64,000 nucleotides of DNA. Source: a virus. Lineage: Duplodnaviria; Caudoviricetes. Position numbers and translations under genes: made by a program. The notes beneath the pieces are model-generated. The model was given only the letters and a program-made list of their open reading frames with translations, had not been told where the DNA came from and did not search any database. The DNA is taken from IMG/VR virus record IMGVR_UViG_3300028833_000053. The stretch is one strand, 5' to 3'. Position 1 is the stretch's first letter; each line of letters begins with the position of its first letter. Shown here piece after piece: positions 3,645-56,314 of the stretch.

Positions 3645-4934
3645 ATGAATATTATGTTAAACGAAAAAGACGAAATGTCTGCAAGGGATGGAGGCACTTC
3701 CATATCCGACTGGGATTGGCAAGACGATTATGCTTTCCACAGGCATTGTCAAAAGACTGTATGTTCTGCAATTGGATATAGTGGAAACGGAAGAACGTGG
3801 AGCGTAATCTATCCAGGTACGGGCCCTTTGCCAAACTTGCAACGTTGCGTCAACGGCACAACCAGCCCAGAAACTTGGCAAAAATATTTCAATGTAAACG
3901 TGGAGAAGTCTGGCAAGAACAACATAACCTATGACTTGAGAGCCATTTTGGAATTGATAAACATGGTTGCGGGGAAATTGTTTGCCAGTCTCGGTCCATT
4001 CACGTTGACGTTCAAGGACGCCGAAGGAAACACCATCGCCTCCAAAGACCTGGACTTGATTAATGATCCATCCAGAGACTATGAATTTGGAGGGTTTGGG
4101 CGAAACGTCAAACTTAAAGTTGGTGGTGCGCTTGCCGCGTCATTCAACACAATGAAACCGGGGACGCTAATAGATGGACTTCCAGAGCAACTTGACTTGC
4201 CATTGCAGCCACTATCCATATCATTAGGTGAAATGTCGCCTTTTAACATAGTAAAAGTGGTAATGGAAAGCGGTGTTGCGGTTAAAATACCATACAATAC
4301 ATTGAGCTTTTCATTTGGGAACGCGGCGGCGTTCGCGTCAACAAACGTTGCGATGGCGGCGCCCGTGAAGTTACAAGTACCCTACAACAACGTGAATTTC
4401 CAGATGCTTGGTAAAACTTTCAATACCATAAAAGCGGCTACCGGACAAAATTGGAATATTACAGTTCCAAAAGATTACAACAGAATTACAACTTCCTATG
4501 GTACATCAGATCCTCAAGGTGGTGCTGGAACTATTACCCAATCTGGTGCAACATATATAGTCAGACCCCATGCCGGCGTTCATATATACAGAATATCGGC
4601 ATCCTCCAATTTCAATCTCAAGTTCAATCTAGCCAATTATCAATCCCGTTGGGATGTGTTTGGCCGAGATTTTGGTCAGCAAATTCTTGAATTTGAAGTG
4701 CATATACGCAATGCTTCTGCAAGTGTAATAACATTCGCAAACATTCATGGAACAACGCTTGCCAATTGGTTTACCAGATGGATAGATGCATCTGCTGCGG
4801 CAACAAACTTCACGTATTTGAACGATAAAGACACAATAGAAGCATATAACACTGCGGCCTATGTGTTTAGGATTGACACCTACCAAAGAAGCATGACATG
4901 GAGTTTGGCATATATTTGTCCTACATCAGGCTAA
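3645..4934 (+). CDS. putative virion structural/tail fibre protein
   Basis: 429-aa beta-rich ORF after late motif GTAAATA at 3603. Confidence 0.55.
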   Translation: MNIMLNEKDEMSARDGGTSISDWDWQDDYAFHRHCQKTVCSAIGYSGNGRTWSVIYPGTGPLPNLQRCVNGTTSPETWQKYFNVNVEKSGKNNITYDLRAILELINMVAGKLFASLGPFTLTFKDAEGNTIASKDLDLINDPSRDYEFGGFGRNVKLKVGGALAASFNTMKPGTLIDGLPEQLDLPLQPLSISLGEMSPFNIVKVVMESGVAVKIPYNTLSFSFGNAAAFASTNVAMAAPVKLQVPYNNVNFQMLGKTFNTIKAATGQNWNITVPKDYNRITTSYGTSDPQGGAGTITQSGATYIVRPHAGVHIYRISASSNFNLKFNLANYQSRWDVFGRDFGQQILEFEVHIRNASASVITFANIHGTTLANWFTRWIDASAAATNFTYLNDKDTIEAYNTAAYVFRIDTYQRSMTWSLAYICPTSG

Positions 4935-33355: not shown

Positions 33356-36300
33356 TCAATATGTGGTTTCATACACGTTGTTTATCTGTTCCTTGTCCTT
33401 GGAAATGCCAAAAAGCATCTTTGATATTCTCCATGCGCAGAACCTCTCGGGCTCGGGCAAAGAACCAATCACCTTGTACTTGTACCAAGCAATCAAATCA
33501 AGGTTGTCGTCACGTTCCTCGAAATTCTCAGCCAGATTATACCACGGGGGAATTGCATAAGCCGAACCAACACGGCAACAATATTCCCACTGAGCTTCTG
33601 TCGGCAAGTCAAAGTTTATTCCGCCAGTCACGCCAGAGCTCCACCTCTTTTTCCTCCATGTGGTTTTTGTCAATCCTTGCTTATTGTCCCTTGCATCCAT
33701 CAAGTACTGCATCAACGGACTGCCACCATACTTATCGTACTTTCCATTTGCAAATCCATTCGCCTTTGCTTCATATCCAGAAACGGAGAGTCCATCACCC
33801 AATTTATTTTCCCACCAAAGTGTATTGTAGTAATTTCCCTTTGCCCAGGTTTGATCACTCCTGTCGGGACCGCCACGACCATCACCTTCATAACCCGTGT
33901 TCACCCCGTATATTCGTGTCTGAGTTTGGACAACTACCTTGGAATTCAATATGTCCATAAAGGACATTGGCGTTGAAGGATGTTCAATCAACTGGAATTC
34001 ATCTCCATTGGCTGACATAATATAGCCCTTTGTAGTAGCCTCTGCGGGCGGTGAGGAATAAAGATCCCGGGCCGAACGCACTGCGTTATAGCTCGCATAG
34101 TAAAACGGACGTGTGTCCTCCAATGGGTTGTATATTCCCCAGTTGACCAATTTTGTTACGCGCTTTTCCTCCACTTCTGTCAATGGAACCGACCTGTATC
34201 CATTTGCGGGTGAAGAACCACCGGACGATGAATAGCCACCCTCTGAACCGGTGTCTCTCGGTGAAAGAGCAGCCAAGTCGCTGATTTGATCCTATGTCAA
34301 AATCACCTTGCCGTTCTTGTCCTTTCCAGTCTCAAGAAGGTATTTCCATTCTTCATTCTCCCACACGCAAACATACTTCCAATAGGATTTTTCCATCTTC
34401 TTGAAATTGGTGTCACCGATTGAACCCGGATTGCCTACTGCTTTCGCCAGATTCGCGCGGGCGTAACCCTTCATTAATGCCATGTCAGGAACCATGTTAT
34501 ATGTTGGGGTGTAGCCAGATTCTCCTGGCCGCTTTCCTGTTGCATCAACAATCAACTGATACGTTGTCACATAGCCAGCCTCGCCGGGCACTTTTCCATT
34601 TACATCCTCTATGAGTTCTTTAGTCATCGGAACGGCACCACCAGAATTTTTGTGGAAACCATACACGTAGCACCATTGGGCAATCGTCAGTTCAAACGGG
34701 TCAATGAAGAAGTGCTTGTTTCGGAAATACTTTGCGCGTTTCTTGTATGTGGTGACATATCCGGCGGCACCGGGTGACCTGCCACTGCTGTCTTTTCCCT
34801 TGGCAAGATCTCCAAACTTGTTTCTCTCGTATACCCAAGGTTGAGCAGCATCAGAAACATCTGGATTGTAGAAATCCTTCGCCCTTTCAATTGATGTGTA
34901 CCAAGACGGCCATTCCTTTTTGTTCACTGGAATGTTTGGATAGTTCCTTTGATATGAACCGCCGTTTCCAAGGGTGACATACTTGTAGTCGTCCCTTGCA
35001 CTGTCAACTATGGATTCAGCGTCCCTATACTTTCTCTTGTTCGGGTCGGTTATCAAGTCATAGTCGCTTGCGTGGCTTCCCATCACGAAGTTGTCGTACA
35101 TTTCACCTGAAATTTCCTCTATGCGTGAAAGGATTATCTTGGAGGTCTTGAATTCGTCATCCGTGTTGATCCTTGCGCTGTCCTTGAATTTCATCGGAAA
35201 CTTTCCAGGCTGCAACGTCAAGAGCGCCGCCGCGTCATCACTCAATCTACTGTCAATTCTCTTGTTGTATTCAGTCAAGTCAGGAAGAAGGTCTATGACG
35301 GCGTACTTGTATGAGAATTTCTTTCCGTCGGACAAATTTCCAACACCTGAACCCGACATAAAGGATTCATAGAACACCTCCTTCAATCCAGTCACGTCCA
35401 TCACGGGGATTGACTTGACAATCACGGTGTTTTCCTCGTCCTCGTAATCGGTGAGGGAACGTCCAGAAGAATTGGTCATTTCGTCAAAGACCTGATGTTG
35501 CCAACGGTATCCCATCAATATCGGCAAGGCTTTCTTGAAGTCGGTGTAGAACGTTTTCACGAAATTGACCAACTTCGTGTGCGACCATATGTCCTTCGCC
35601 TCACTGTACGTTCCAACGTTTTTATCGGATTTCGTGGAATTCGCAATGGCGATTTTCGTCAAAGCGAATTTCCAATACGGTGGATAGGCGGGGCCGGCCC
35701 ATGCGTCCGTTATTGTGGCATATGCCCCAACGTCGCCGTACCTGGTCTTGAATTCCGATGCAGGTGCGGGATTGCAAGTCAACACCTTGTTCTTCGTGGC
35801 GCAAACAGCGGCACTGGTTATCAAGCCAGAAGAGGTCTTGGCAATGTTTTCCTGATGGACTATTATCTTCATATGTCCTGTGACAACTTCCCTTTGATCC
35901 TCACCTTCTCCCTCCATATGTCTGTATGTAATGGTAATATAGTCCAACGGTTCCTTTGTCCAGGCGTATTTGCAATCTATCTCGGTTGGCGGGGAATAAT
36001 CCCTAACCTTAAGCGACCGAATCCAACTTGTGCCAGAAGTTGAGGTCGCTCCAGAACCATACACCGAAGGACTCAACGCGGAACACATCTTATTGATGAA
36101 CATTGGATAGCAAGTTCCTGCAAAATTGGATCCCGCAAGAGTCCAATCTTCGGGCCACTCGCCAGTTTCTTCGTTCTTTTTCTTCTTGTACACCACGCAC
36201 AGGCAAACGGCCATAAGCTCTATGGATTCCTCCGTCAACGTGTACTTGCCCATGCGCCTAAACGGATAATCTTCAGTTTTCTTCCTTCTGTTTTTGTCGT

Positions 36301-39300
36301 CCCACACGGTCAATGGACACAGATGCTTGTCTATGAATTCACGAGCCTTTGCCGAAAGAATGTATTTCGGTTTTTCGTTTGTGTGATCTCCTCTTCTGTT
36401 TGCCACGCCATCCTTTCCTTCAGGCAAGGTGCCGGATTTTGCATAGTCATATATGATTTTAGCCCAAGTATTCGGTATGTTGTAACTGGCGGCTGCTCGG
36501 GTCAAATCAGATTCACCACCGCTCGTCACCCAACCTTCTTCGTCAGCCTCGCCATGAGGAAACACGCTTTGCACTATGTAGTCCCCCATAAAGCCGGCGA
36601 ACTCGCCATCGTGGGCATGGTATTTCTAACGCCAACTGCCCTCGGCAAACGTCTCGTCTCCTTTCTTTAGCGTGCGGCAAGCGGGAAGACCCATAATGAA
36701 GAAATACTTGTCATAATAAGCAATCTACGTGTCGTCTTTTCCGGGGGTTGGACGGTCCTCCGCCCTTGGAATAATGACATCCTTGCTCATTGTTACTCCA
36801 TTCCAAGTACCGTCTTTTTTTCCAACAAACGATTTCCATCCGTGGCGTGTGGCAAACACCATGTTGGTGCTGGTATATGGGTTTTCAAGTCCGAATATCG
36901 TTTCGAGAATACTTGCGTCTTCTTCATTGCATACGACATTCTCTATTGCGCGGGCGTCGTCCATCTGAAGGGCGTTGTTGGACATCCTCAAGATTTTCCA
37001 TGTCAAAGGTTCACCGTCCTTGAGGTATTTGGAGAACCATCCCCTCATTTCAGAATCGTCGATTACAACCTAATCCATATCCTTGAACAAACGTGGTTCG
37101 TTGTTCATGTAGAAGGACTTGGCAACTTCAAGGGCGTTTGCCGCAGTAACTTCTCCCGTATCATACAACGGCGTTGGCGCGTTTGCATCGCTTACGAACA
37201 TGTATGAATTCACGGGTTGATCTGTCAACGCCATCGTGTTGCGCAATTGGAAATATCCAATCGTCTTCAACCAATCATAACTGACATAGTGCTTCTTGTC
37301 GATGCTGGAGTTTCCTGGCATCTGTCCACTTTCATACAAAGTTGACTTTTGTGTTTCCGTGAGAAGTTTCGTAGATTCCATTCCGTCAAACGGATATGTT
37401 TCCTTTTGCATATCGGCGGAAGACAAGGATCCAGAAACCTTCAAGTCATCCGTGACAACACTTCCTGCGCTCCATTTGACCGTTACGGACAGCTTATGTA
37501 TTTCCTTCTCTATTTCATTGAACTTTCCAGTATTTCCATCAAGCAAGGACGACACGGCGGTCATGGCATTATACTCTTCAGACCCAGAATCCCTCGGGTT
37601 CAATCCAACATTATAGCAATAAGTCTCAAAGGTGTCCTTCAATGATGCGGCATTTCCACGCATCATTTGCAGGCAATACGGGTCTGGCGGAACCAAATCT
37701 CCCCCGAAAACGGACGTGCCACCATAGAATTGAAGCGAGGTCTTACCCGGTATTCCAGGACTGACAAGAATTTCCTTTGACTGCACACCGCCAGCTTCAG
37801 AATAGGTGGTGTCCATTTCATTGTCATATTCATTTGCAAACACGAACACCAACCTCGGAACTTTCTTTCTGAAAAGATAGCCCAATCCCCGGTGGTTTGG
37901 ATGTCCATAGAAATATCCCTTTCTTATCAACTTGGACATCATGCGGCAAGTAGGTTCGCAACCGGCCCACCAGTTAGAGAGAACACCCTTGTCACTGACG
38001 ATAAACGGAAATTCAAAGTTTTCTACACCTTCATCCGTTGGGTCATAGGTGAAGAACGGAACTTCCTTGCTGAACGCCTCTTGGCCGTCTTGCGCTTCCA
38101 CTGTCCACTTGTCCGTCGTTCCATTCCACGTCATCCCCTGATAGCTGGCGAAGTATCTCTGCCAATCTCCAAATTCGCCAGTTCCCTGCTTGCCCTCCAA
38201 TTCATCCTGCAATGGAACGTCTGACTCTCCGTCAACATGTACACCAGCCATTTGCTTGGTTATTCCGCCAAAAGTCAACGGCATCGGGCGAAGTTCACTG
38301 TCAACTTCAGTACCGCCCTTAATCCAAGCTGGAACACCACAGAACAAGTTGAACTTCTTTGACAAGGTATAGTAGTAAACCGTAACGTCCGCGTCCTATG
38401 GATATTCAGGTGGCGGGTCTTTCTTGTTGTGAACCAAAATACCTTGCTCTCCAACATAATATGTATGGGTTCCTGAAACCTCAAGGTTGTACACATATCC
38501 CAATCTCAACCCAACATCAATGCTGTCTATGGTATGCCAAGTGCCATCAGGACGCAACAACTTATCTGAAACCTTCAAATCCTGGGCCGTAACCCAATCT
38601 GTTTTTTCATCCCTGTTGACGTAGAACGGATGAACTCCGGTTGCCTCGATAGTTTCTTCTCCGACTTTTATGGTGAAAATCTCCCTGACAAGCAAGTGAC
38701 GCATTGTCTTCACCACCTTGCAGTATTGATTTTTGCCGGAAACTTCATCATAGGAAAGAACCGTGTCACCCTCTTCAACCTTGTCAATGTCCTTCCGTCC
38801 ATCAAGCATTATGACCTTCGTTCCAGCAACAAAACAGTCGCCGCCTTTGTTGTGAACCAACGCGCCACGTTCACCGACATAGTACGTATGCGTCCCTGAA
38901 ACTTCAAGGTTGTACACATATCCCAACTTCAACGCAATGTCAATGTTGTCTATGGTGTCCCATGTCCCATTGGGGCGCAGCAGCATATCTGAAACCAACA
39001 AATCCTGTGCTTTTACCCATGACACTTCCCCACCCCTATTGACATAAAATGGATGTACTCCCGTTGCCTCAATTGCCTCATCGCCGATTCTTATGGTGAA
39101 AATCTCCCTGACAAGCAAATGCCTCAACGTTTTCACCACCCGACAGTATTCGTTTTTACCCGTGGTTTCATTATAGGAAAGAACAAGTTCACCTTCCTCA
39201 ATCTTGTCAATGTCCTTTTCCGTGCCATCCGCCATAAGAACTTTCGTGCCCGCGACAAAACAATCCGTCGAGCCCTTATTGTGTGCAAGAATATGTTTTC

Positions 39301-42300
39301 TTCCGACATAATAGTTGTGGTTCTTCGTGACTTCAATGTTGAACACGCCGGTTGACAACTTCTGCGATGCAATCTTGGAAATGCGGTGCAAACTTCTGTC
39401 ATGGAACATCACAAGGTCTCCGACAACAATCTCGTCCGCCCTAATCCAGGATTTCTTGTCCTTGCGCATGATGTAGAACCTGTGGTTTCCAGTGACATCC
39501 AATTCGTCGCCCTCGATGGTGAATGTATAGATGTCCTCGTCAACATCGTGCGTCATCGTCTGGGCAACTTCGCTTATTTCATTCTTTTCCTCTTCTTCGT
39601 TATACGAAACAACTTGGTCTCCGACGGAAACATCCTCTATGTTCTTCAAGGAACCGTCGGACATCTCCACCTTTGTTCCGGCAACGAAACACGAATAACC
39701 GCCTGAACCACCCGTGTCGCTTCCTCTTGATTTCAGGGGTTCCTGACTCTGAATCTCCCCATCGAACCCAAAATCTCCTTCATCGCCATATTCAACCTGT
39801 ATGTCATCTTCCTTGTATTCACCAGACCACTTGTCAAGTACGTTGGACTTGTAAGACCACTCGGATTCAAGGTTCTCAACCAAGCTCCCGTCTATGGACT
39901 TGGCTGAAGAACCACCTCCCTCGCTGCCCATCATCCAGCAATTTTCATAGTAGTTCTGGAAGAACGTCTCAAACCCACTTGGCTTTCCATCCGCCCCCGT
40001 GCCCGAACCGAATGCCCCGGTTGTCCAATGCTTTTTCGATTCCGCACAACCCCATCCGTAAGGTCGGCCTTCACCATTACCTCCTCCCCAGTTTGTATAT
40101 GGCGCATTATCAGCGCCAGAAAGGTAATAGTGGTACGTTGTGCTGCCATATCCCCTTTTCCAGTTGTAGTAGCTGGGCATTCCATCGTAACTGCCATACT
40201 TTATCTGCGTATATTCAGCACACTTATGTGCGCACATGAACCTGAGCGTCGGACCAAGGAACAACGCAGAACCAACATGGCAAATGTCATATGTTCCCGT
40301 TTCACTATATCCCGCAAACATGCGCACTATGTCGGTTGCGGATTCAATCATCCTTGTTATCTGGTTGTTCTGTGAAGCGGAAGCGTCAAAGAGGAAGAAC
40401 AAGTCAACTGGACTTGTGTGGAACTCAAACGACGAACCCTCGTTTTCCGCACTGAATATCATGGAAGGTCTGAAACCAACGTTCGCCTGCGTTGCATATT
40501 TGGACTTGAACCTGTCAGGAGCAAGTTCCTCACGGGAACTGCATATCACCTTTCTGCAAAGTTGATCGAACGCTCCACCCTTGATTACCTTCTTCGTATG
40601 CTCACCGACAGTGACAATCGGGTTGACTTCTGGATTACCCTCTGTGCTGCCCGGACCACTTTCCTTCTTGATGGTGGCGTTCCAATCGTCCCTCACCCAT
40701 TCCCAAACGTTTCCAAGCATGTCGTACATCACCAATTTGGTTGACGGGGACAACAACTTCCCTACACGGTGGATGAAAAGCTCGTTGTAAGACCATTCGT
40801 ATCTCCAATAGAACTGGGGAACAACTTGGAACGTTATGGACTTCATGTCCTTCACGGTAAGGTCGTGATGGGACTTGTTCATACCTTCCATTGAAGTATA
40901 GACTGGGAACAATTGCTTGTTCAACACGGTCTTGCTGATTTTGCGAATCCACTTTTGCCTGCTGTCGTTCAAGTAGTATTCAGACTCGGGAAACTCCTAA
41001 TCCAAATCCAATGTCTTGGGGAATTGAACTGTGGTGTCGGACAACAATTGCTGATAAACAAGACTGTCTCCAATTATGTAGTTGGCGGGAACATCCTCAA
41101 ACTTGAATCCCTGGTATATCCTTGCTCCCTCTGGAACAATGTCGTCCTCTTCATCTTCTATGTACGCCTTGTAGCCCTGATCATAGGGGTCGCCCAGCGG
41201 AACCTTCAACTCTCTCGGCCTCATACCATCGTGGTCGTCGTCAACGCCATCCAGGGTAGTGACTCTGAAATTGTCGTGGCTGTTCAATATCCTCTCATAC
41301 GTCAAACTGGCCCGCGCCATTTCATAGTCGATGGCATGCCATTTCACATGAGCCAAATCTTCGTCAAATTCCTCCTTCGGCCTCATCTTCCATGCGGTAT
41401 ACTTGGCTATAAGCTCGACCCTTCTTGCCTCTATCTCCTCGTCAGTTGGCTGAGGTATGTTTCCTGTGAACATGACGAAAGAAGCCTCGTGTTCCCTTGC
41501 GTTGCGTTCAAGGACGTGGGAAATCTCAATGAAGGAGTTCGTCCAGTGGACGTAGCAAGGCGTTCCATAATTCGTGGAAGAGCCATCAACGTCGCCAAAC
41601 GTGTTCCTTCCATTTGCCATTATGTTGCCTTTCCACTTGTTCTGCTTGAACGTCCTGTATATGCTTCGGACAATCTTCTTGGTGTACTTCTCCAAGGCTT
41701 GCCACGCTGCAAGATCGCTTCCCAACTCGCGGCGCTTGTTCTTGAAATACTTTATGTAGGTATAATGGCGTACCACGTTCCACAAGTTCCAGGTCATCGG
41801 CCTTTCATGTATGGAATCAAGAACGTCCGTGTTCATGTTCTCTGGAATCTGTTTTTTCCTGAAGTCACCGTCTCCGTGGCATTGCTCACCAAAATAGTAT
41901 TTGTCCGCCGTTGGGTCTTCGTGTTGTGGCGTACCAAAGGCGTTGCTCATGTGGTGTATCTTCCACTTCTCGTTCGTGCCGGCGCAATTGGGGTCAAACA
42001 CGCCCTTGTAGCAGTTTCCAGAATTGTCGGTTGTCAACACCGTGCCGCCATAGTCGCGTTTTGCAAAGTCGGTGCCAATGGTGTGCTGCACGGCGTGCCA
42101 CTTGTGCTCCGACAGGAACGTAGGTGTCCTTCTTTCCTCCTTCGTGTCGGAATCAACCTCAACATACTCGTCTTGTTTTTCGTGCGCGTTGGAATAGCAA
42201 TAGCCACCCTCTTCATAGTTGAGCTTCGCACTGCTGATTCTTCCATAGCAGTCAACTGTCGGTCCGTTGTTCTAGTCGCCTCTGTTCTCCCACCAAAACA

Positions 42301-45300
42301 CGTAGGGCATAATGTCCTCAAGTTCAACCACCTGGTTCAAGTCCTCCAACGGAGAAACCATCGTAATGTAGAACCACACGGAATCTTCGTCGAAATCGTC
42401 TATTGCGTGGGCTTGACTGAGGTTGTACTTGTACTTCAACCTGTCGGGACTTGCCTTTCGTGCTTCGTCATATACGTACTTGTTCACGGTCAAGTCAACG
42501 AATGAACCGCCCTTGTCGTAATCGTCAACCCAATCCTGGTATGGGAACCTGAATTCACCAGAACCACCACTTCCAAAATCGTATTGAGTGCCATACATTC
42601 CATTGAACTCACCGTCCTTGACCGTAAGTTGCTTCAACGTCTGATATGGAATGAGCTTGGTGAACCTCTCGGCCAGCGTCTTGAGGTTGTTCTCGTTGTG
42701 GTGTCTCTTCGCCAAGAACTCGCAAGCGCGAACAATGTCGCCGAACGCAGGATCTTCCGTGCGTCCCTCATTTGACTGCTCGAATATGATTCCATTTATG
42801 TGATCGGAACTCTTCGGCACCTTGTCCGTCTGATAGGTGTCAAGCATGAAGCTGTACAACTCGCTGTTCTGCTTTATGTTGAAGAACGGAATCAAGAAGT
42901 ACGTCCAATCCCTTTGGTTGTAGAGATAGTACCAAGTGCTTTTTATGTTGTCAACCAAAAAGCCGCTCTTGTCATCCTCGTCCTCGGGATTCAACTTCAC
43001 CCATTTCTCGTAAACGCTTCTCTATGTATCGTCAAACACGTCAAGATGGAAGTCGCGGTCCATCTAAAGGAAGTTGTAGCCGCCAATTCTGTTGTACTTG
43101 TCATAGGACGACGGAACTATTATGGAGTCCTCGTTGTACTCCATGTTCACCATCGTCTTGGAAGGAATGGTACACCATCCAAAGACGCCATATCGGTTTT
43201 CAACGTCCGCCTGATACTTCGTGTCAGCCGCCATGTCGCAATCGTTGAATATGTCCCTTACCTTCGGCATTATGATTGGACGGTACTTCTTCACAATGGA
43301 AGTGAATGTCTGCAACTAATCCTGACCCCTGACTATCTCGTTGTAGGTTCCGTCGTTCTTGTGTCCCAACCTATGACGCAGGAAATCGTTTGCGTCAACC
43401 GGGGACTGGATGGTGGAGTTTTCGTAGAGACAAAGCGGACGTATGTCATAGTAGTTCTGCTGATCGTCCAAAGTCGGCGTCACGTTCGTGGAAATGTTGT
43501 CGTCTATGGTCTTGTTCCTGTCGGTTGTGTCGTTCTTCCTCTTCTGGACGCTTTGAAGGGTTTTCCTGTAGTCATAGTAGTAGTAAAGATCGTTATAGTG
43601 TACTGCGTTCGTGTTGTATTCACCAATCAACTCGCGGTTCACTGGAGTTATTCTCCAATTCAACGCCCGTGTCTTGTCTATCCTGCAAACAAGCCTGCCA
43701 TCTTCCACTTGGTTTGCCGTGTGGAAGTTGGAGAACTTGAATTCAATTGCGGGTTCAAAGGAAATCCACTTCACGTCCCCATTGAAGCACACCACCTGGT
43801 AATTTGAAGGGGTTCCGCACACAACATCGCCTGAATTAGTGCAGATTATTTCATCCAACGCCTCGTCGGCCTCACCCAATATCTCTCCATACCACCAATC
43901 TGACTTCTCGGGCACGTCTATCTTGAGGAAATACTCCTTGTGCGCTATGTCTATGTTTATCTTGAACAACGCCTTGAGCAAGTTGACAACATCAACTATT
44001 TCAAGCATCGTCAAGGGCATGAAGTCGTTTGCACTTGACTTCAATCTGTTCAACAAGCTGAGGAACGGACAAGCGGAGAATTCATCAAATCGGGATTCAT
44101 CATACTCCCTGGGATTCAACCCAATCAACGTGCAATAGCACTTACCCTCTGAATTCACCTTGTCTATGTCTGGATGACCAGACCAATACTGGCAAGTTCC
44201 CAATGTATGATCTGGTTCATCTTGAACACGGGGGTCAACCAAGTACGAACTAACGCCATCCAATTTGTCCTGTTCGTCACCATTCAAAGGAACAACAACC
44301 TTGTCGTATACTGCAACCAAAACGGATTCCGAAAGTATGGTCATGGAGGACGTTATGTTTCCACTTACCAAACTCCAATACCTGAACACATACTGGGTGC
44401 AAGAATCATCGCCATCCTTTACATTCGTTTCCAAATGCAGGTGGAATGAAGGTATGTGCTGATTCTAAACAACATCCTGCCACTTCTCGGCCTCGTGTCC
44501 ATCCTAATCTATGTACTTGAACGTCACGCGGAAGGCAGTTTCGCCACCTGCATGAATCTTCGCGGTGATATACCTTTGATATTGCTCAGCGTCGGACTTT
44601 CCATCGCAGATGATGTACTTGCTCAAGTTCTTACCTTCGTCAAAACCTTGGTTGTCACCTTCCGCAGACACGCCGGTGTTCGCCAATGGCTCGGTTCTGT
44701 CATCGCAAATTATGGCACCGCCACGTCCCTCGATGCCCGGAAGCACATCACCTTCCAAACTGCTCCAACCAAGAAACTTGAGGTTTGGATTAGAAAGTTT
44801 GGGGTTAAACGGAGGATATACCACCGTGTTCACTTCCTTGTCAATCAAGACATCGCAATAAGGCTCGTCACCAACCTTGAACGTCAATATGTCATAACCC
44901 AACGTCCAATTAGCCTCCAACACCACAATAGGCGCAGAATCCACCCATTGCTGTTGAATTCCAAACTGATACTCGTCATAGCATATGCCATAGGAACCGC
45001 CAATTGAATATTGCCAATTGGCGAACTTGTGCGTCTGCCAACGTTCACCCGTGGCGTTCAACCCAGTTGGAGAATCCAAAGGATAGTCGAATTCCCAGAA
45101 TCCAGTTGGGGAATCATGGTATTCAAAGCGAAGTTTGTCCCCAGATGGTCCCGTGAAAGTGCATTTTGGCAAATTCACAAGTTCGTTGGCGCGGACCGTA
45201 ATCGGCCTCATTTCGCCCGAACCACCATCGCCGGGTCTGAACTTCACGATATATTGCGTGTTCCAAACTGCATAAAGGCTCAATGTGTCGGAATCATGGA

Positions 45301-47836
45301 AGTTCCACTTCGTCAACACGTCATCCAAGTCAATGGACGGCACCTGGGCAAACCTGTCCGTGGAAAAACCAAGCAGTTCATATTGCACCGTCAATCTTGA
45401 AGATGCGTCCAAAGTCTCGTCCGTGTCCGTAAACGTTGGCTTGTTGACCAACTTCACCTCGGAAAGATCCAATTGGAAATCATCACGTTCCGCTTCAAAA
45501 TGAATTGACTGTGGTCTGTTCAACAAGTCGCGCTTGAATGAAGATCCAACCGGCACCTCGACAACCCCACCAGTCCATTGCATGTAGCTGTTCAAGTTGA
45601 AGTTGATGTATATGTCACGGTGACGGTATCCAACATCCGCCGCGGCACGGCTATTCAACATTCCCTTTACGGGAACCGGTTCGCTTTCTTCAAAGGAAGG
45701 TGCTTCTTCAACCACAATCTCCTTGGGTGCGGAATCGCTCTCCCGGCACAATGGGCAAAGATCCCAATTCTTCAACAACCAACCCTGTCCCGTTTTCGCC
45801 AAGATTTGAAGAAATTGCTCCAATATCTTGCGTTCATCCGTGTCTAGTCCAGAAGTGCCAGGATTCCTCCAATATTGCTCCACTTTCGCCAAATACCTCA
45901 GGTAACCATTTGGATCATCCATATCGTTTTCGTCATAGTACACAAAGGCATTGGGGTTTTGGGAATGCTTCAAGGTGTCGGTTGTAAGGTACTTGTAGCC
46001 ACTGTCGATGTTGATATGGCGTTGAAACACCTCTCCGGTTGTTGACTTGAACTGCAAATACTTGTAGAGACGCGAAAACACTCGCTCAATCACGATTGCA
46101 CATTGGGACTGGGAATAGTCATTGACGTTTGCCGGGTTGAATTCCTCAATCGCGTTCATGGAAGAGTTGTATATGTTGAATATCTTTTCGTTCTTTATGA
46201 CTTCAAATGCGTCCGCAAGGGCGTAGTAGCCCTGTTCCAACATCTTGTCCCTGATGTCGGAAACGTCCTTAACTGCCTCACCAAATATGGGTTTCACGTA
46301 TTGACTACCAACCAGGTCATTATCCGTCAATTCGTGATATTCAAAAGCGGACATCACGTCATAGGCGCAACCCAAGTGAAGATTGGTGTACTTGGTGTAT
46401 ACGGACCTATGGGATTCCTGATATACCTTTCCTGGTTGGTAGAACCAGTCATAGTCGTTGTCCGAATCGGCCTTGTGCGTAACCTCTGCAAGGGAAACAA
46501 ATCTCCTTACGATGTCATTCATCTTCGTCAACACGCCACGAGGAAGAACGCAATCCTTTCTGGTGTTGGCTATCGCAAGGCAATTGTCATTGTATTCCTG
46601 CCACATCACGTCGTTCCATATAAAGGCGTACTTTACAAGATTGCCCAGCTCGTCTGGAACTCCATCACCTATGGTCTCATCGTCAATCCACTCCAAAGTG
46701 GCGGATGGCAAGGAATCCTTGTATATGCGTCCATTGGTGGCATTTTCAACATCGTCGCTTTCAACATACTCACGTCCAGATTCATCCGTGAAAACCTGCT
46801 TCCTTGACATCGGGTTCATGTTGAAATACTTGACATCAAAAGGATACTTCGCGTCTATGCTCTTGTAGAGAAGGTTGTACCAAATGTCCAAGGCAAGAAT
46901 GCCCTCCCACCTGCGGTGTGGGTGCTTGAAGCCATATATCTCATGGCACATTCTTATGTTGGAAAGCTTGGCGAACAACTTGGCAATGTGTTCACAAAAG
47001 ACATATATGTAGGACTTGCTGTCAGTCAATGCAACGGCGTTTCTGAAAGAAGTCTTTGCATCGTGAATGTCCTTTTCAAGATTCCTCAACTCAAACATCG
47101 TTGAGGACTGTCCATGTCTGTGAATGTCAACCTGCTGTTTCTTGTCAATTCCAGTGTAGTCCTCGTTGTACTTCCCATAGTTGTAGTCAGTCAAGAACTC
47201 ATCCGCATATATGCCAATCTTGGGGTCGGTTGTGGCATAGTCAACAAAGGGCGTGTATGTGAAGGAATCCAGGAAAAACTCACCATTCTCAAAATCCTCC
47301 TTCACCCTGTCGTAATCCACCTGACGGAAACCATCATCAACCATAGTGAAGCCGGTTATGCCATAGGTGTTCTGATAGGATTCCAGTTTCAGGGATTCCC
47401 CACTTCTGTACTTGAATCTGAACAAATCACGGAAATAGTTCTGTGAATCATCGCCATCAAGTTTCATTTGCTTTGAAAAGTCCTGAAGCAAAATCTTCTC
47501 AATGAACTCAAATGGCGTGATGAGCCTGTCTATCATGTTTGGTGGATAGTACGGGTTGTTGTTTATGGGCAATTCCGGCGTGGATGACGTTTCATCGCAA
47601 TGGACAAGATAGGAGGTTCCCTCATATGCGGTCTCCCTGTACTTCGGACCAAGTTCAAGGAGTTGTGTTACACGGTGGTTCCGATTACGGTCCCCGTTTT
47701 CGCCATTTGACCTGTCACCATTTACGACATCATCCTGTGGACGCATCTCCTTGGAAATGTAGTCATATATCTGTCCTGAGTTTGGTGTTTCGCCAAGTAT
47801 AAGTTTCTTAAGATCTGTTACGTAAGAATTGCTCAT
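33356..47836 (-). CDS. giant ~4,826-aa virion-associated protein: InlB-B-like repeats, permuted FGE/C-lectin halves, vWA motif, 3 tandem Hint domains (12 in-frame TAG)
   Basis: ten ORF-track pieces from 44504-47860 down to 33356-34276 are all in one frame and separated only by TAG; ends TGA; late motif at 47880. Confidence 0.85.
38426..39691 (-). repeat. three tandem Hint/intein-like domains (39278-39691, 38849-39262, 38426-38836)
   Basis: each CFVAGT...TG[N/V]H...V[F/Y]N[I/L]EV..H.YYV....HN, 137-138 aa; copies 2 and 3 are similar at DNA level. Confidence 0.9.
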
Positions 47837-47879
47837 TGTTCTTTCTTCTCTATCTACCAATCTTCAACTTTCGTAGAAC

Positions 47880-51206: not shown

Positions 51207-53621
51207 TCAAGCGTCCACGCATGTGTGCTTGACTCTCTGCTCAGTCTCCTTCTGCTTGCCGTAGTTGAACGCAGTCTTGTAGTCGCCGGTCAAGTAGCCC
51301 GTCACGCGGCGAAGCCTCTGGATGTTGGTGGAGCCGCACTGGGGGCATTTCTCGCCAATTTCATCCGTGTAGCCGCAATCGTTGCAGATGTCGTTCGGGA
51401 CGTTGATTGCGAAATAGGGGATGTCGTGATCCATTGCGTAGTTCACAAGCTCCTCTATTGCCTTGATGTTGTTCTTCGCGGTTCCGTCAAGTTCAACATA
51501 GGTGATGCATCCTGCGCTAGAATATCCCGTAAGCTGACTTTCAAGGTCAATCTTCTCAAACGGCGTCATCTTCTCCCATACGGGAATGTGCATTGAATTG
51601 GTGAAGTAATCGTGGTCTGAGACATGTTCAATCTCGCCATACTTCGCCTTGAACTTCTTCATCGCAGTATAGCACAGATTCTCCGCTGGGGTAAAATACA
51701 CGCCGAAATTCAGCTTGTACTCCTTCTTGAACTCCGCGCACCTGTCCTTGAACAACTGCTCGATTCGTTTCGCAAGTTCCATGCCCTTCTCCGTGGCGTG
51801 GTTGCATCCAATGAGGATGTGAAGGGTCTCCGCAAGTCCCAACTGACCGATTGCCAACGTTCCATGCTTCAGCGCGGACTTGATGCCCTCTTCTGGCTTG
51901 TAGCCGTACATCGTCCCGTTTTCGTACATGAACTTGGCGGACGCAGCGGGTTGTGAGGTAATCCAGTCAAACCTTTCAAGCAGTGAATCCTTGGCTTCAT
52001 GAATCTTCTTGTCCAGAAGTTCCATGAAATACTCAACTGTTTTTGTCTCCGCCGCCCCTTCGCACCAGTCAATTCCCTTGGCGGTGGCTTTCTTCAATTC
52101 AGATTCCATTTTCTTCTTCGCCTGCATCGCCAATGTCGGCATTATGATCGTCGTCGGACAGATGTTTCCCCTACCGTCCTTCAACTGAACCAACTTGGGA
52201 TCTTCCGCGTTGATGTCGGCAAGGTTGGCGGTTCTGCATCCCATCGTGCTGAAATAGGTGCAGGGGTTGTTTGGGTCATAGCCAGCTGCATTTGACCAAT
52301 CCACGTTCGCATAGTTCGGATAAAGCCTCAACGCAGTTGACTTGCAAGCCAACTTGAACAAATCGTAGTTGGGGTCTCCCTTCTTCCTGTTCACGCCCTT
52401 CATGCACTGGAAGATGCCACACGGGAATATGCTTGTCTTGTGAAACTTGCCAATTCCCTTGATTGAACCCTCAATCAACGCCTTTGTCACCATTCTTCCC
52501 TCTGGCAACGTGCAAGTGCCATAGTTTATTGACGTAAACGGCAACTGGTTTCCGCTCCGCGATTGTAGTGTATTGAGGTTGTGGTACATTCCCTCAACCG
52601 CCTGCTCCAGTTCTCTGGTTGTCATTTCCATGGCATACTTGTACGCATCGGGGAACTTCTTGTATGCATCGCTTTCAATAGAAACTTCCTTCGACAAGAT
52701 TGTATATTTGACCTTTCCGTTCTCCTCCTTGGCATAGCCATTGTCCTTCAGCCATTTCAACTTCTCGTCATGTGTCAAACCAGACTTCTCAAACTCCTTG
52801 TATTTCTTCTGAATCTCGTCATCCCCAGTCCATTCATTTGTGAATTCTACGAACTGCAAGAGATTCACGCCCTTTCCTGAATTCTCAACGAATTCCAATG
52901 CGTCCTTGAAGTGCTTGAAGAAAGACTTGCGCACATACGGCACCATCGTCCAGTCAAGATGGGTTGCCGCAACCCCACCGAACTGCTGCAGGGATTGAAG
53001 CTGGAATATCACAGCCACCAACTGAAACGCGGTGTTGATTGAGCCAGCTGGTCTGACATCACCCTGCCTTGTGTTGAAGCCCTCTTTCAACAACTTGTCA
53101 AATGGGATTGAAAGGCAGTTGTGACTGCCCACTGCGTATGCGTCAAGGTCGTGGATGTAGACCTCGTTGTTGTTGTGGTTGTGGCGCGTCTTCTTGGAAA
53201 CCAGATGTTCCAATGCGTAGTTCTTCATCACATAAGACGCGGTCTCGCCCATTCTCCCACCAAATGAATACTCGTCAACGTTCGCATTTTGGTTTTGGAC
53301 ATTGGACGCGGTCAGCTTCTCGGTGAGGTATTTTGTGTTTCTGACCCTCTCCTTCTCGTATCGGTACGTGATGTACTTCTTGGCAACCTCGTAGCCAGCG
53401 GCCTCCATTATCTTCTTCTCAATGACATCCTCAAGAATGTCAATGTCAATCGGCTCCTCCAACGTCTCGCAAAACGCCACCACGGAATCCGTTATGCGCT
53501 TCAGCTGCTTTGCTGTCAGCTTCTCGTCGGCCTTTACGTTCTCGTTTGCCTTGATGATTGAATTCAAAATCTTCTTCGGTTCAAGGTCTTCCACCTTGCC
53601 GTCTCGCTTTATCACTGTCAT
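51207..53621 (-). CDS. nrdD: anaerobic ribonucleoside-triphosphate reductase (class III) with ATP cone
   Basis: VIKRDG ATP cone, YIHDLD, NC, MGCRT, TPAENL, CxxC/CxxC, RRVTGYL glycyl-radical motif. Confidence 0.95.
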   Translation of the reverse strand: MTVIKRDGKVEDLEPKKILNSIIKANENVKADEKLTAKQLKRITDSVVAFCETLEEPIDIDILEDVIEKKIMEAAGYEVAKKYITYRYEKERVRNTKYLTEKLTASNVQNQNANVDEYSFGGRMGETASYVMKNYALEHLVSKKTRHNHNNNEVYIHDLDAYAVGSHNCLSIPFDKLLKEGFNTRQGDVRPAGSINTAFQLVAVIFQLQSLQQFGGVAATHLDWTMVPYVRKSFFKHFKDALEFVENSGKGVNLLQFVEFTNEWTGDDEIQKKYKEFEKSGLTHDEKLKWLKDNGYAKEENGKVKYTILSKEVSIESDAYKKFPDAYKYAMEMTTRELEQAVEGMYHNLNTLQSRSGNQLPFTSINYGTCTLPEGRMVTKALIEGSIKGIGKFHKTSIFPCGIFQCMKGVNRKKGDPNYDLFKLACKSTALRLYPNYANVDWSNAAGYDPNNPCTYFSTMGCRTANLADINAEDPKLVQLKDGRGNICPTTIIMPTLAMQAKKKMESELKKATAKGIDWCEGAAETKTVEYFMELLDKKIHEAKDSLLERFDWITSQPAASAKFMYENGTMYGYKPEEGIKSALKHGTLAIGQLGLAETLHILIGCNHATEKGMELAKRIEQLFKDRCAEFKKEYKLNFGVYFTPAENLCYTAMKKFKAKYGEIEHVSDHDYFTNSMHIPVWEKMTPFEKIDLESQLTGYSSAGCITYVELDGTAKNNIKAIEELVNYAMDHDIPYFAINVPNDICNDCGYTDEIGEKCPQCGSTNIQRLRRVTGYLTGDYKTAFNYGKQKETEQRVKHTCVDA

Positions 53622-53685
53622 GTTTATCCTCTTTGATTCTGGTGTACAAACATACATTTACCATTATCAATTATACCAGCGAAAA

Positions 53686-53968: not shown

Positions 53969-56314
53969 TCAATATCTGCTGAACACGTAACCATCTTCCT
54001 CGAAGTAGTCGTTTATGAAAAGATCGCGTCCAAAAGACTCATAGTCAAAGTAGTTTCTCGCCGTGTCGGGACCCAACTGGTCAACGCCACCAAGACTGTC
54101 AACGTAATCTTCCGCAACTTGCCTGTCGGACTCGTACTCTCCCTGGTCATAGCCATCGTTGTCGTAGTAGTGGTCTGGGTCTTCAGGCTCGCCCTCGGAG
54201 TCCGTGTTGTCGGGGTCTCCGATGTGGAAATCATACATCAAGTCACGTCCAAAGGAATCGTAGTCAAAGTACATGTCAAGGTTCTCCTGACCAAGACTGT
54301 CCCAACCCATGCTGTCAACAATGTGGTAGGCGAAATCCTCTGCGGAGTTAAACTGTCCCTGATACGCATCGTGGAAATCGTCAATGCTGTCATTGTCAGT
54401 GTAGCTGACATAGGCGGCATAGGCATCCTTCTCCGAATCGTCCATCATGTAGTATTCGTTGATTTTGTCAAACTCCTCCTCGGTTGGCAAGCCACCTTCG
54501 TGATACCACTTCTCGGGGAAGTTCTCATAGTCCTGAACCATGAACTCTGGGTCTTTCTCGTCGGAATGAAGTTCACGGCAAGCATCCACGAATTCCTCGT
54601 AGGTGTTGTAGTCGGAAAGGGTTATCCACTTTCCGTCAATGGAACCGTTGTTGTACTTGGCGTATGTTCCAACGTAGATTTTGGGTTCTCCCAAGTCAAC
54701 GTCACCATCGGCTTCCTTCACGACCTTCTTGTTTGACTCGCCATAGCAGTCCAACGCCTGATAAACCTTGTCAAGCTGGCGTTGCATCCAAATCTTGTCG
54801 ATGCGGTCGCCGCTCTTTCCATATTGGACGCAAGCATCACCATAGTCGTTGATGATGTTCTTGACGTCCGCCGTTCCTTCCTTCACAATCTTCTTCATCG
54901 TGTTCTTCCTCGTAGATTCATTCAATTTGTTAAACTCCGCATAGAACTTGCCCAACCTGTTGCGCCACTTGATAGCCACCTTGTCGTCAGTCATTGATGT
55001 TGCTCCGGCGCGAACGAGAGAATACAACGTGTCAAGATCCTTCTTGCCATTGATTTCAAGTTCCCAGTTCTTGTCGGAGGAATCATAGAACTCCTCCAAC
55101 TTGTCAACCCACTTTTGGGCATCGTCAAACTTCAAGCTGGCAAGGTGAATCAAACCATAAAGCTCGTCAAGTTCCTTGCGGCTCCTGATTTCCAGATTCC
55201 ACTTCATTCCCTTCTCAAGCTCTTCCCAGTTCGTGGATTCCTCCATTCTTCCATTGTAGGTTGAAACCCAATTCTCGAAATCATCCAGCAACTTGCCAAT
55301 CAAAAGCTCTTCGTCCCTGCTGCAGGTCTTGTTCTTCCAATCATGCTCGATGTCAAACAAACGGTCGCGCAATTCCCTCAACTCAAGGTCGCCCTGTTTC
55401 TCTGAAACGCCATGATGCTTGACATCGCGGATTACCCTCTTCTTGGCGGCTTCAATAGCCCTCTTGAACTTCTGAAGTTCGGACGTCTCCTTCACAACTT
55501 TCTTCATATTGGTTTTCCTCGTGGATTCCTTTAGTCCGGCAAAAAGGGATTCTATCTTTTCCAGTTCATCCGGTGTTGCATCCAACCTTCCATATTCCAT
55601 GTCAACGATGATTCCGGTCTCGCATTCACCCTTCGTCTTGTACCTGTTTCCTGGTATGTACTTTCCGGTTTCGTTGTCAAAACCCACCCACCAGCTCTTT
55701 CCGTCCAATGCGGTTCTCTGCTTTGCTGAATACCTTTTGGTTATGTCCTTCAAGGGCAACATTGACTCGTTCACAATATCTTCTTCTTCTTCCAAAGACA
55801 AAAGTTCGGGCGCCGTTTGCCTGAGATATTCCCTGTCCTCGTCTGTGAACGACCCCATGCTGGAAAGATAATCCTGAACGGCCCAAACCTTGTCCTCGGA
55901 TTCATCCCATGACGGGTTCACTCCACTTGGCTTGAACTCCTTTTCCTTTTCAGCCAAAAACGTTTCCAAGTTGCCAATGGATTCCTGCACATATCTTGGG
56001 CCGTCATCGTCAATGACGTGGTCTTCCTCTTCATGATAGCCAACGTCCTTGAATTTCCTTGCGTCAATCGCAGCAAGGAACTCAGGAATTTGATCCTTTG
56101 ACATGAAATCCTCATCGTACAGCTCATATTCCTTGAGTTCATAGTTCACCCTTCCGATTGGCGCACCTCTGTAGTAGATTTCATATCCATGGTCATAGCC
56201 ACCAAGAGCCATTTCCCAGTTTCCGCATCGGCCACGCTCGCCGTTGTCGTCAATCTTATCCATTACCTTCGCAAGGGCGGAGAAATTAAGTTTGGATTCA
56301 TTCATCTTTTTCAT
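53969..56314 (-). CDS. multi-module polyprotein with C-terminal ArdA anti-restriction domain
   Basis: C-terminal ~240 aa: PKIYVGTYAKYNNGSIDGKWITL...DPEFMVQDYENFP...YFDYESFGRDL...DGYVF matches ArdA; repeated xxES linkers. Confidence 0.85.
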   Translation of the reverse strand: MKKMNESKLNFSALAKVMDKIDDNGERGRCGNWEMALGGYDHGYEIYYRGAPIGRVNYELKEYELYDEDFMSKDQIPEFLAAIDARKFKDVGYHEEEDHVIDDDGPRYVQESIGNLETFLAEKEKEFKPSGVNPSWDESEDKVWAVQDYLSSMGSFTDEDREYLRQTAPELLSLEEEEDIVNESMLPLKDITKRYSAKQRTALDGKSWWVGFDNETGKYIPGNRYKTKGECETGIIVDMEYGRLDATPDELEKIESLFAGLKESTRKTNMKKVVKETSELQKFKRAIEAAKKRVIRDVKHHGVSEKQGDLELRELRDRLFDIEHDWKNKTCSRDEELLIGKLLDDFENWVSTYNGRMEESTNWEELEKGMKWNLEIRSRKELDELYGLIHLASLKFDDAQKWVDKLEEFYDSSDKNWELEINGKKDLDTLYSLVRAGATSMTDDKVAIKWRNRLGKFYAEFNKLNESTRKNTMKKIVKEGTADVKNIINDYGDACVQYGKSGDRIDKIWMQRQLDKVYQALDCYGESNKKVVKEADGDVDLGEPKIYVGTYAKYNNGSIDGKWITLSDYNTYEEFVDACRELHSDEKDPEFMVQDYENFPEKWYHEGGLPTEEEFDKINEYYMMDDSEKDAYAAYVSYTDNDSIDDFHDAYQGQFNSAEDFAYHIVDSMGWDSLGQENLDMYFDYDSFGRDLMYDFHIGDPDNTDSEGEPEDPDHYYDNDGYDQGEYESDRQVAEDYVDSLGGVDQLGPDTARNYFDYESFGRDLFINDYFEEDGYVFSRY

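Follow-up and report, generated by a model that had tools for sequence, protein, structure and literature searches.

The DNA analysed here, a stretch of 64,000 nucleotides (the window) from the IMG/VR virus record IMGVR_UViG_3300028833_000053, carries a giant gene, P0001, whose product holds the two parts of an FGE/FGS (FGE-sulfatase) lectin fold in reversed order. The record is a complete phage genome of 433,895 bp with direct terminal repeats. The part of the fold that normally comes last (B half) is followed by a vWA-like region and by three Hint domains, and the part that normally comes first (A half) lies at the end of the chain; the gene of a MoxR-type ATPase stands next to the giant gene (Table 1). 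The original prediction had placed the reversed domain at 33450-40800, within a single protein. The motifs are indeed found inside this span and on the minus strand, but the span is limited to the C-terminal half of the protein, which is continuous only when TAG is read as an amino acid.

Table 1. Features of the giant gene and its downstream neighbour, in window coordinates (aa, amino acids; ORF, open reading frame; HMM, hidden Markov model)
Feature	Residues or length	Window position	Strand	Basis or remark
Giant ORF P0001	4,834 aa	33356..47860	-	single ORF with TAG read as Q; ends with TGA at 33356-33358
Lead before B half (67 aa)	aa 2296-2362	40775..40975	-	conserved in alignments; without recognisable family
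B half, C-terminal part of FGE/FGS lectin fold	aa 2363-2470	40451..40774	-	PF03781, hhalign, canonical HMM
Probable vWA start (tentative)	aa 2482-2545	40226..40417	-	DxSxS MIDAS-like motif (DLFFLFDASAS), 17 aa past B half
Three tandem BIL-type Hint domains	aa 2724-3145	38426..39691	-	PT-HINT, E 6.7e-46
LVFVFANEYDNE strand	aa 3330-3350	37811..37873	-	invariant alignment block
A half, N-terminal and middle FGE/FGS fold with four large insertions	aa 4219-4796	33473..35206	-	PF03781, hhalign, HMM, co-fold
C-terminal tail (38 aa)	aa 4797-4834	33359..33472	-	most conserved stretch of the whole protein
MoxR-type AAA+ ATPase gene	374 aa	31989..33113	-	directly downstream of giant gene; TAG-free

Order, boundaries and conservation of the two pieces

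The B half carries the motifs IHRVG, YDMLGNVWEW, VIKGGAF and NVGFRPS. It was matched by PF03781 at aa 2376-2464 (window 40469-40735; profile positions 176-252 of 255) with 37-40 bits and E-values of 3.7e-9 to 4.6e-10, above the curated cut-off of 23.3 bits. The A half, which corresponds to profile positions of about 23-175 and ends 38 residues before the stop, carries KTSKIILSRI, FVMGS, FFIDPFELTIAQW, YNPLEDTRP, FMDILN, LPTEAQWEYCCR and LIAWYKYK. Alone it stayed just under the same cut-off: PF03781 matched aa 4738-4778 (window 33527-33649; profile positions 110-139) with 19.7-21.7 bits. In the compact relative P0023, the match of the A half spanned profile positions 23-127 (E 2.6e-4). The B half thus lies about 1,770 residues ahead of the A half, and the order read from the motifs in the original prediction was borne out by the PF03781 scan. 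Furthermore, a six-frame PF03781 search of the whole genome gave these two matches only, so that neither a second copy of either half nor a full complementary half beside one of them was present, as had been predicted.

Five full-length or nearly full-length homologues were found on IMG/VR and ENA contigs of 60-418 kb, all of them TAG-recoded: P0002 (3,797 aa), P0003 (4,060 aa), P0004 (at least 3,849 aa), P0155 (2,953 aa) and P0156 (at least 4,158 aa). Together with P0001 they make up the six proteins to which our counts refer. The five homologues share one order, namely the B half, DLFFLFDAS about 17-20 residues on, a Gly-rich linker, an LVFVF.NE.DN block and, about 750-900 residues after this block, the A half, with a tail of 43-49 residues after the AWY motif. 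The reversed halves were kept in all five.

A canonical FGE alignment built from 33 generic domains was used for the hhalign and HMM tests. When the family profile was aligned to it, the B piece took columns 188-275 (98.9%, E 2.9e-17) and the end of the A piece columns 127-181 (98.4%, E 4e-15). Weaker matches of the A half were collinear with these, at columns 46-64 (KTSKIILSRI...FVMGS) and 80-101 (FFIDPFELTIAQW). The canonical FGE HMM gave exactly two matches in each of the six proteins, and the two never overlapped. The upstream match covered states 163/166-240/253 and the downstream match states 85/120-144/161 (164-251 for the B half and 117-159 for the A half in P0001). The A piece ended at state 144-161 and the B piece started at 163-166, in line with the hhalign columns 181 and 188. 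These boundaries indicate that the pieces are complementary, with a single breakpoint between the AWY and HxVG motifs. Complementary, swapped and non-overlapping segments around one breakpoint, as in a circular permutation, were found in 6/6 proteins, and a contiguous N-to-C order of the FGE domain in none of them.

Both halves are flanked by conserved sequence of their own. The 67-aa lead showed no significant match to FGE profiles and lies outside the confident contacts of the co-fold described below. The C-terminal tail (VIGSLPEPERFCAWRISKMLFGISKD.EQINNVYE) is near-invariant in alignment, and its last 34 residues have a mean identity of 0.81 among the six proteins; it matched nothing, had no significant likeness to FGE and was also outside the confident co-fold interface. 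We considered whether the lead and the tail could be remnants of the lost halves, and this was rejected on hhalign probabilities below 5%. In windows of 100 residues, conservation peaked at aa 1801-2000 (0.57-0.66) and in the B half (0.63), in addition to the last 34 residues.

Two further readings of the domain were tried and rejected. The B half of P0001 has a C-x4-C pair (LCRKVIC) with the spacing of the catalytic pair of FGE. A catalytic FGE was rejected on the ground that the pair occurs in this phage only: of the relatives, P0002 retains a single Cys, while P0003 and P0004 have neither. A target of a diversity-generating retroelement (DGR) was rejected as well, with no RVT_1 reverse transcriptase found genome-wide and no second copy of the B-half DNA.

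The wider searches returned mostly fragments. A profile search of 1.84 billion proteins gave 67 fragments with E below 1e-30. About 20 of them reached the C-terminal module and stopped where the profile ends or no further than about 10 residues from there (P0012 continued for 39 more), and in none of these was a back half found after the A half. In a second search, 64 fragments carrying the B half were returned, the longest of their contigs reaching 425 kb. No relatives of either half were found in GenBank phage records. Scans of viral contigs gave only four contigs; L104 was dropped, as it matched an 810-aa ORF on the wrong strand. The metagenome scan returned one true relative, already known, the remaining matches being generic FGE domains sharing LPTEAQWEY. 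As a separate observation, two of the relatives' B-half fragments (P0170 and P0174) have about 40 additional residues within the B-half region and carry PF02839 (CBM_5_12-type, carbohydrate-binding) in the precomputed Pfam list; the extra stretch may be a sugar-binding insertion.

Co-folding and a proposed composite lectin-type domain

The pieces were co-folded as three chains, aa 2290-2480, aa 4215-4522 and aa 4524-4834, the A side being split at the TAG of position 4523. The alignments had 60, 57 and 45 rows (database rows only), of which 60, 46 and 38 were used. The median ipSAE of three runs was 0.65 (0.58, 0.65 and 0.87), against 0.04 for the best control. There were about 500 contacts, at least 70% of them common to the runs, with a partner pLDDT (predicted local distance difference test) of at least 57. 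They involved aa 2356-2473 of the B side and aa 4231-4300, 4381-4392, 4481-4500, 4583-4597, 4634-4649 and 4746-4799 of the A side, which map to conserved motifs and to the contacts of canonical FGE; the insertions were not involved. The surest pairs were F4385/L4391 with M2467/F2463, a pairing of the strands FFIDPFEL and FRPSM, and L4752/W4758 with E2387-V2389, by which LPTEAQW lies on GNVWEW. In the models, then, the pieces appear to fit one fold, which is not to say that they bind. The original prediction had taken them for complementary halves of one FGE-type fold that would co-fold, and both the boundaries in the six proteins and the co-fold agree with this. Modelled alone by AlphaFold2, the B half was poor (mean pLDDT 45), and the compact A half reached a mean pLDDT of 55, with the region from LPTEAQW to the end below 50. 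Such poor models would be expected of an incomplete domain but are weak evidence.

Past the B half, a vWA domain probably begins. Its DxSxS motif is invariant among aligned homologues, and all 13 of the best PDB matches were integrin I or beta-I domains aligned at beta1-MIDAS-alpha1 (MIDAS, metal ion-dependent adhesion site), though weakly (E 0.4-1). The LVFVFANEYDNE strand is possibly beta4 of this vWA, placed after a long insertion.

From these data we consider it probable that the C-terminal half of P0001 represents a circularly permuted 'vWA ... FGS' module, in which the A and B halves form one non-catalytic, lectin-fold domain. The FGE/FGS domain would have been cut in the loop between the AWY and HxVG motifs, with the B part placed directly before the vWA-like region and the A part at the chain end. 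The last B strand (FRPSM) would pair with FFIDPFEL of the A part, and GNVWEW of B would pack on LPTEAQW of A. The halves so joined would turn the 1,100-1,770 intervening residues into a closed loop, or else connect neighbouring subunits. Written as B - vWA - X - A, the layout would be the circular permutant of vWA - X - (A+B), and it is probably ancestral to a clade of TAG-recoded phages of about 420 kb. A tandem duplication followed by trimming could have produced it; this route is a conjecture, since no un-permuted ancestor was found. If the halves do join, this would be a natural lectin-type fold made from two reversed segments separated by 1,100-1,800 residues. The layout also suggests a way in which a complete 'vWA ... 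FGS' module may undergo permutation.

Several points weigh against this proposal. The front third of the A half matched FGE profiles weakly (E 0.003 and 0.095). The pLDDT within the complex was only 51-68, and the calibration of the ipSAE mark, which was reached by 58/80 solved complexes and 2/110 mismatched pairs, holds only roughly for a three-chain job with its own alignments. FGE structures have been solved, so the passing co-fold may reflect the memory of the model. The vWA identity is below every curated threshold: PF00092 matched with profile positions 1-45 at E 0.021 and 15.5 bits, under its cut-off of 23.8. No un-permuted ancestor and no intermediate was found. Finally, the evidence fits folding within one chain and pairing between subunits equally. 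In the latter case the A half of one subunit would complete the B half of the next, so that the 4,834-aa subunits would form a ring or a filament, head to tail, an arrangement that we regard as unlikely. If it were true, lectin-type binding sites would exist only at the subunit junctions and the MoxR ATPase, via the vWA region, would load or reset the clasp, that is, an assembly-gated binding module without a described counterpart.

The boundaries of the two pieces meet within 2-7 profile states in 6/6 proteins, unlike what independent decay would leave. This bears on the explanation that the pieces are unrelated relics of two formerly complete FGE domains, each decayed to a fragment with another role and standing apart from the other. 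Multi-FGE proteins are common, many of the profile-search matches having 3-9 stretches, the lead and the tail give each half a conserved extension that matches no FGE part, and with poor single-chain models no fold has been demonstrated, all of which would suit such relics. However, half of a lectin-type fold would lack its own hydrophobic core; even so, few parts of the protein are as well conserved as the two halves, and the co-fold interface coincides exactly with the conserved motifs. We regard the relics as rather unlikely on these grounds.

Hint array and reading frame

Each of the three Hint domains has an invariant Cys1, TxxH and C-terminal His-Asn, with Lys at +1. They thus have the features of the A-type BIL (bacterial intein-like) or PT-HINT class, namely a small domain with Cys1, a block-B TxxH and a terminal His-Asn and without an endonuclease. 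A canonical intein was rejected, given that the +1 residue is Lys and not Cys, Ser or Thr in all three Hints here and in the single one of P0156. Like the described A-type BIL domains, those of P0001 are of about 138 aa, lack a homing endonuclease and a +1 nucleophile, and lie in a non-conserved protein, within a variable region (PMC7765530). They are different in forming a tandem triplet within a giant phage protein, in a region bracketed by a split domain, and in having no toxin downstream. A-type BIL domains were reported to cleave at their own ends (PMC7765530). For the Hints of P0001, to judge from their sequences, both cleavage and splicing are possible.

Hint numbers in the six proteins were 0, 0, 0, 0, 1 and 3, at one shared site in a Gly-rich loop. 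P0002, P0003, P0004 and P0155 have only the Gly-rich linker there and no Hint. P0156 has one at the same site, nearest to the first copy of P0001 (54% identity). The absence in four homologues and the single copy in P0156 indicate that the array is a lineage-specific insertion. Moreover, the Hint-less homologues keep the reversed order, so the reversed halves are independent of the Hints, and the dependence of lectin assembly on Hint processing that the original prediction proposed is not supported, in view of these 4/6 proteins. The same distribution, with a fifth homologue having one Hint, shows the split to be older than the Hints. It makes it improbable that cleavage is the purpose of the arrangement, with the Hints cutting the precursor and the lectin fold forming only as a complex of two chains. 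Such processing would be favoured by the Hint residues retained as in A-type BIL domains (Cys1, TxxH, terminal HN and Lys at +1; PMC7765530), by the halves flanking the array on opposite sides and by the passing co-fold of separate chains. Under the circular-permutant proposal, three BIL-type Hints would have entered the Gly-rich loop inside the bracketed region without being needed for the fold, and in the case of cleavage instead of splicing, the composite domain would hold the two product chains together. This offers an idea of how self-cleaving Hint insertions may be tolerated, namely where a split domain clamps the region into which they fall. For BIL domains that lack a C'-flanking nucleophile, a study cited in PMC7765530 (its reference 69) reports, by its title, splicing in addition to auto-cleavage; by splicing the chain may be rejoined, a further point against obligatory cleavage.

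In the frame of P0001 there are 12 in-frame stops, and all 12 are TAG. The phage genome has 36 tRNA genes, most of them clustered at 310-324 kb. A tRNA with anticodon CTA at 410487-410576 of the whole genome, outside the window, was labelled Pyl by ARAGORN and is likely the amber suppressor behind the TAG recoding. In the alignment of the six full-length homologues, Q stood in 53/264 cells of the TAG columns, against a background of 3.6%, and several TAG-opposed columns were entirely Q. Since all stops are TAG, a CTA tRNA is encoded and TAG aligns with Q above background, the read-through is taken as real, with Gln as the likeliest residue inserted. Translation table 11 breaks the region between 33356 and 40972 into five consecutive minus-strand ORFs of 858, 431, 107, 765 and 306 aa, and public databases contain only such fragments; nevertheless, it is very improbable indeed that TAG is a true stop, with the halves in separate small proteins and the giant ORF a chance run, for besides the all-TAG stops, the closing TGA, the CTA tRNA encoded in the genome and an agreement with Q far over background, the TAG sites differ in place among relatives inside the same conserved frame and conservation continues unbroken through them. 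For annotation, the lesson is that table-11 calls shred this protein family into fragments and so hide its architecture.

For the rest of P0001, about 3,000 residues outside these features, profile searches against Pfam, PHROGs and PDB gave no family. Segments in aa 1-1118 (window 44504-47860) resemble Listeria-Bacteroides (Flg_new) or SHIRT repeats, with an Atlas score of 0.86-0.87, a sub-threshold lead. These repeat-like segments hint at an adhesin-like surface region.

MoxR neighbour and related systems

The product of the gene next to P0001 matched AAA_5, AAA and AAA_3, as well as phrog_1297 (ATPase, E 2e-89). In contigs L004, L005, L090 and L092, an ORF of 374-392 aa likewise follows the giant gene at this position, with AAA families recorded for it in L090 and L092. 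Thus the giant gene has the adjacent and conserved MoxR-class AAA+ gene that is expected of a MoxR-vWA pair. A T4-type large terminase gene lies beyond the MoxR-type gene. Together, the MoxR-type neighbour and the vWA-like start that follows the B half suggest a MoxR-vWA context, which was not considered in the original prediction. The ATPase would probably act on the vWA part in the assembly of a late, probably virion-associated protein.

In bacterial MoxR-vWA systems, the vWA component has variable C-terminal domains, and FGS, with which the component often ends, is the last of them when present (Kaur et al. 2020, PMC7159879). The phage locus is similar to these ternary conflict systems in having a MoxR-type AAA+ gene beside the gene of a large multidomain protein, a vWA-like region along with an FGS-type domain at the very C-terminal end, and an FGS that would be non-enzymatic and presumably ligand-binding (PMC7159879). 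It is different from them in that the FGS of P0001 is cut in two, with its back half before the (tentative) vWA, and in that the system is phage-borne, has the giant gene first and MoxR second, and has no DGR (PMC7159879). By this comparison of architectures, the closest known kind is the vWA component of bacterial MoxR-vWA systems that has FGS as its last domain.

MoxR-vWA pairs have also been described in T4-like (group 2.2) jumbo phages, where they were proposed to be virion-assembly chaperones (Iyer et al., PMC7824862). As in these phages and in Acidianus two-tailed virus, a MoxR-type ATPase and its putative vWA partner lie here near structural and packaging genes (PMC7824862), and the terminase of the present phage, being T4-type, adds to the likeness. 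However, the vWA partner of the jumbo phages is fused to a metallopeptidase and is not part of a 4,834-aa protein (PMC7824862). No FGS domains were reported in the survey of 224 jumbo phages (PMC7824862), and our results place FGS domains, along with a MoxR-vWA-like pairing, in megaphages.

Compared with canonical FGE/FGS domains (FGE, PorK/GldK and the DGR variable proteins Mtd and TvpA), the split domain belongs to the same PF03781 family and keeps the hallmark motifs, and its best PDB sequence matches were PorK/GldK and FGE. It is different in its reversed halves about 1,770 aa apart, in the four large insertions of its front half and in not being a DGR target. Full-text searches of the literature returned no report of a circular permutation of this kind for the FGE/FGS or C-type lectin fold.

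Two other genes of the window were recorded. A 781-aa ORF (53969-56314) ends, on its C-terminal side, with two stretches of the ArdA antirestriction family (PF07275, E 3e-33). The gene at 51207-53657 encodes NrdD, an anaerobic ribonucleotide reductase (E 7e-147) that has an ATP-cone as well as a glycyl-radical domain, which fits an anaerobic host.

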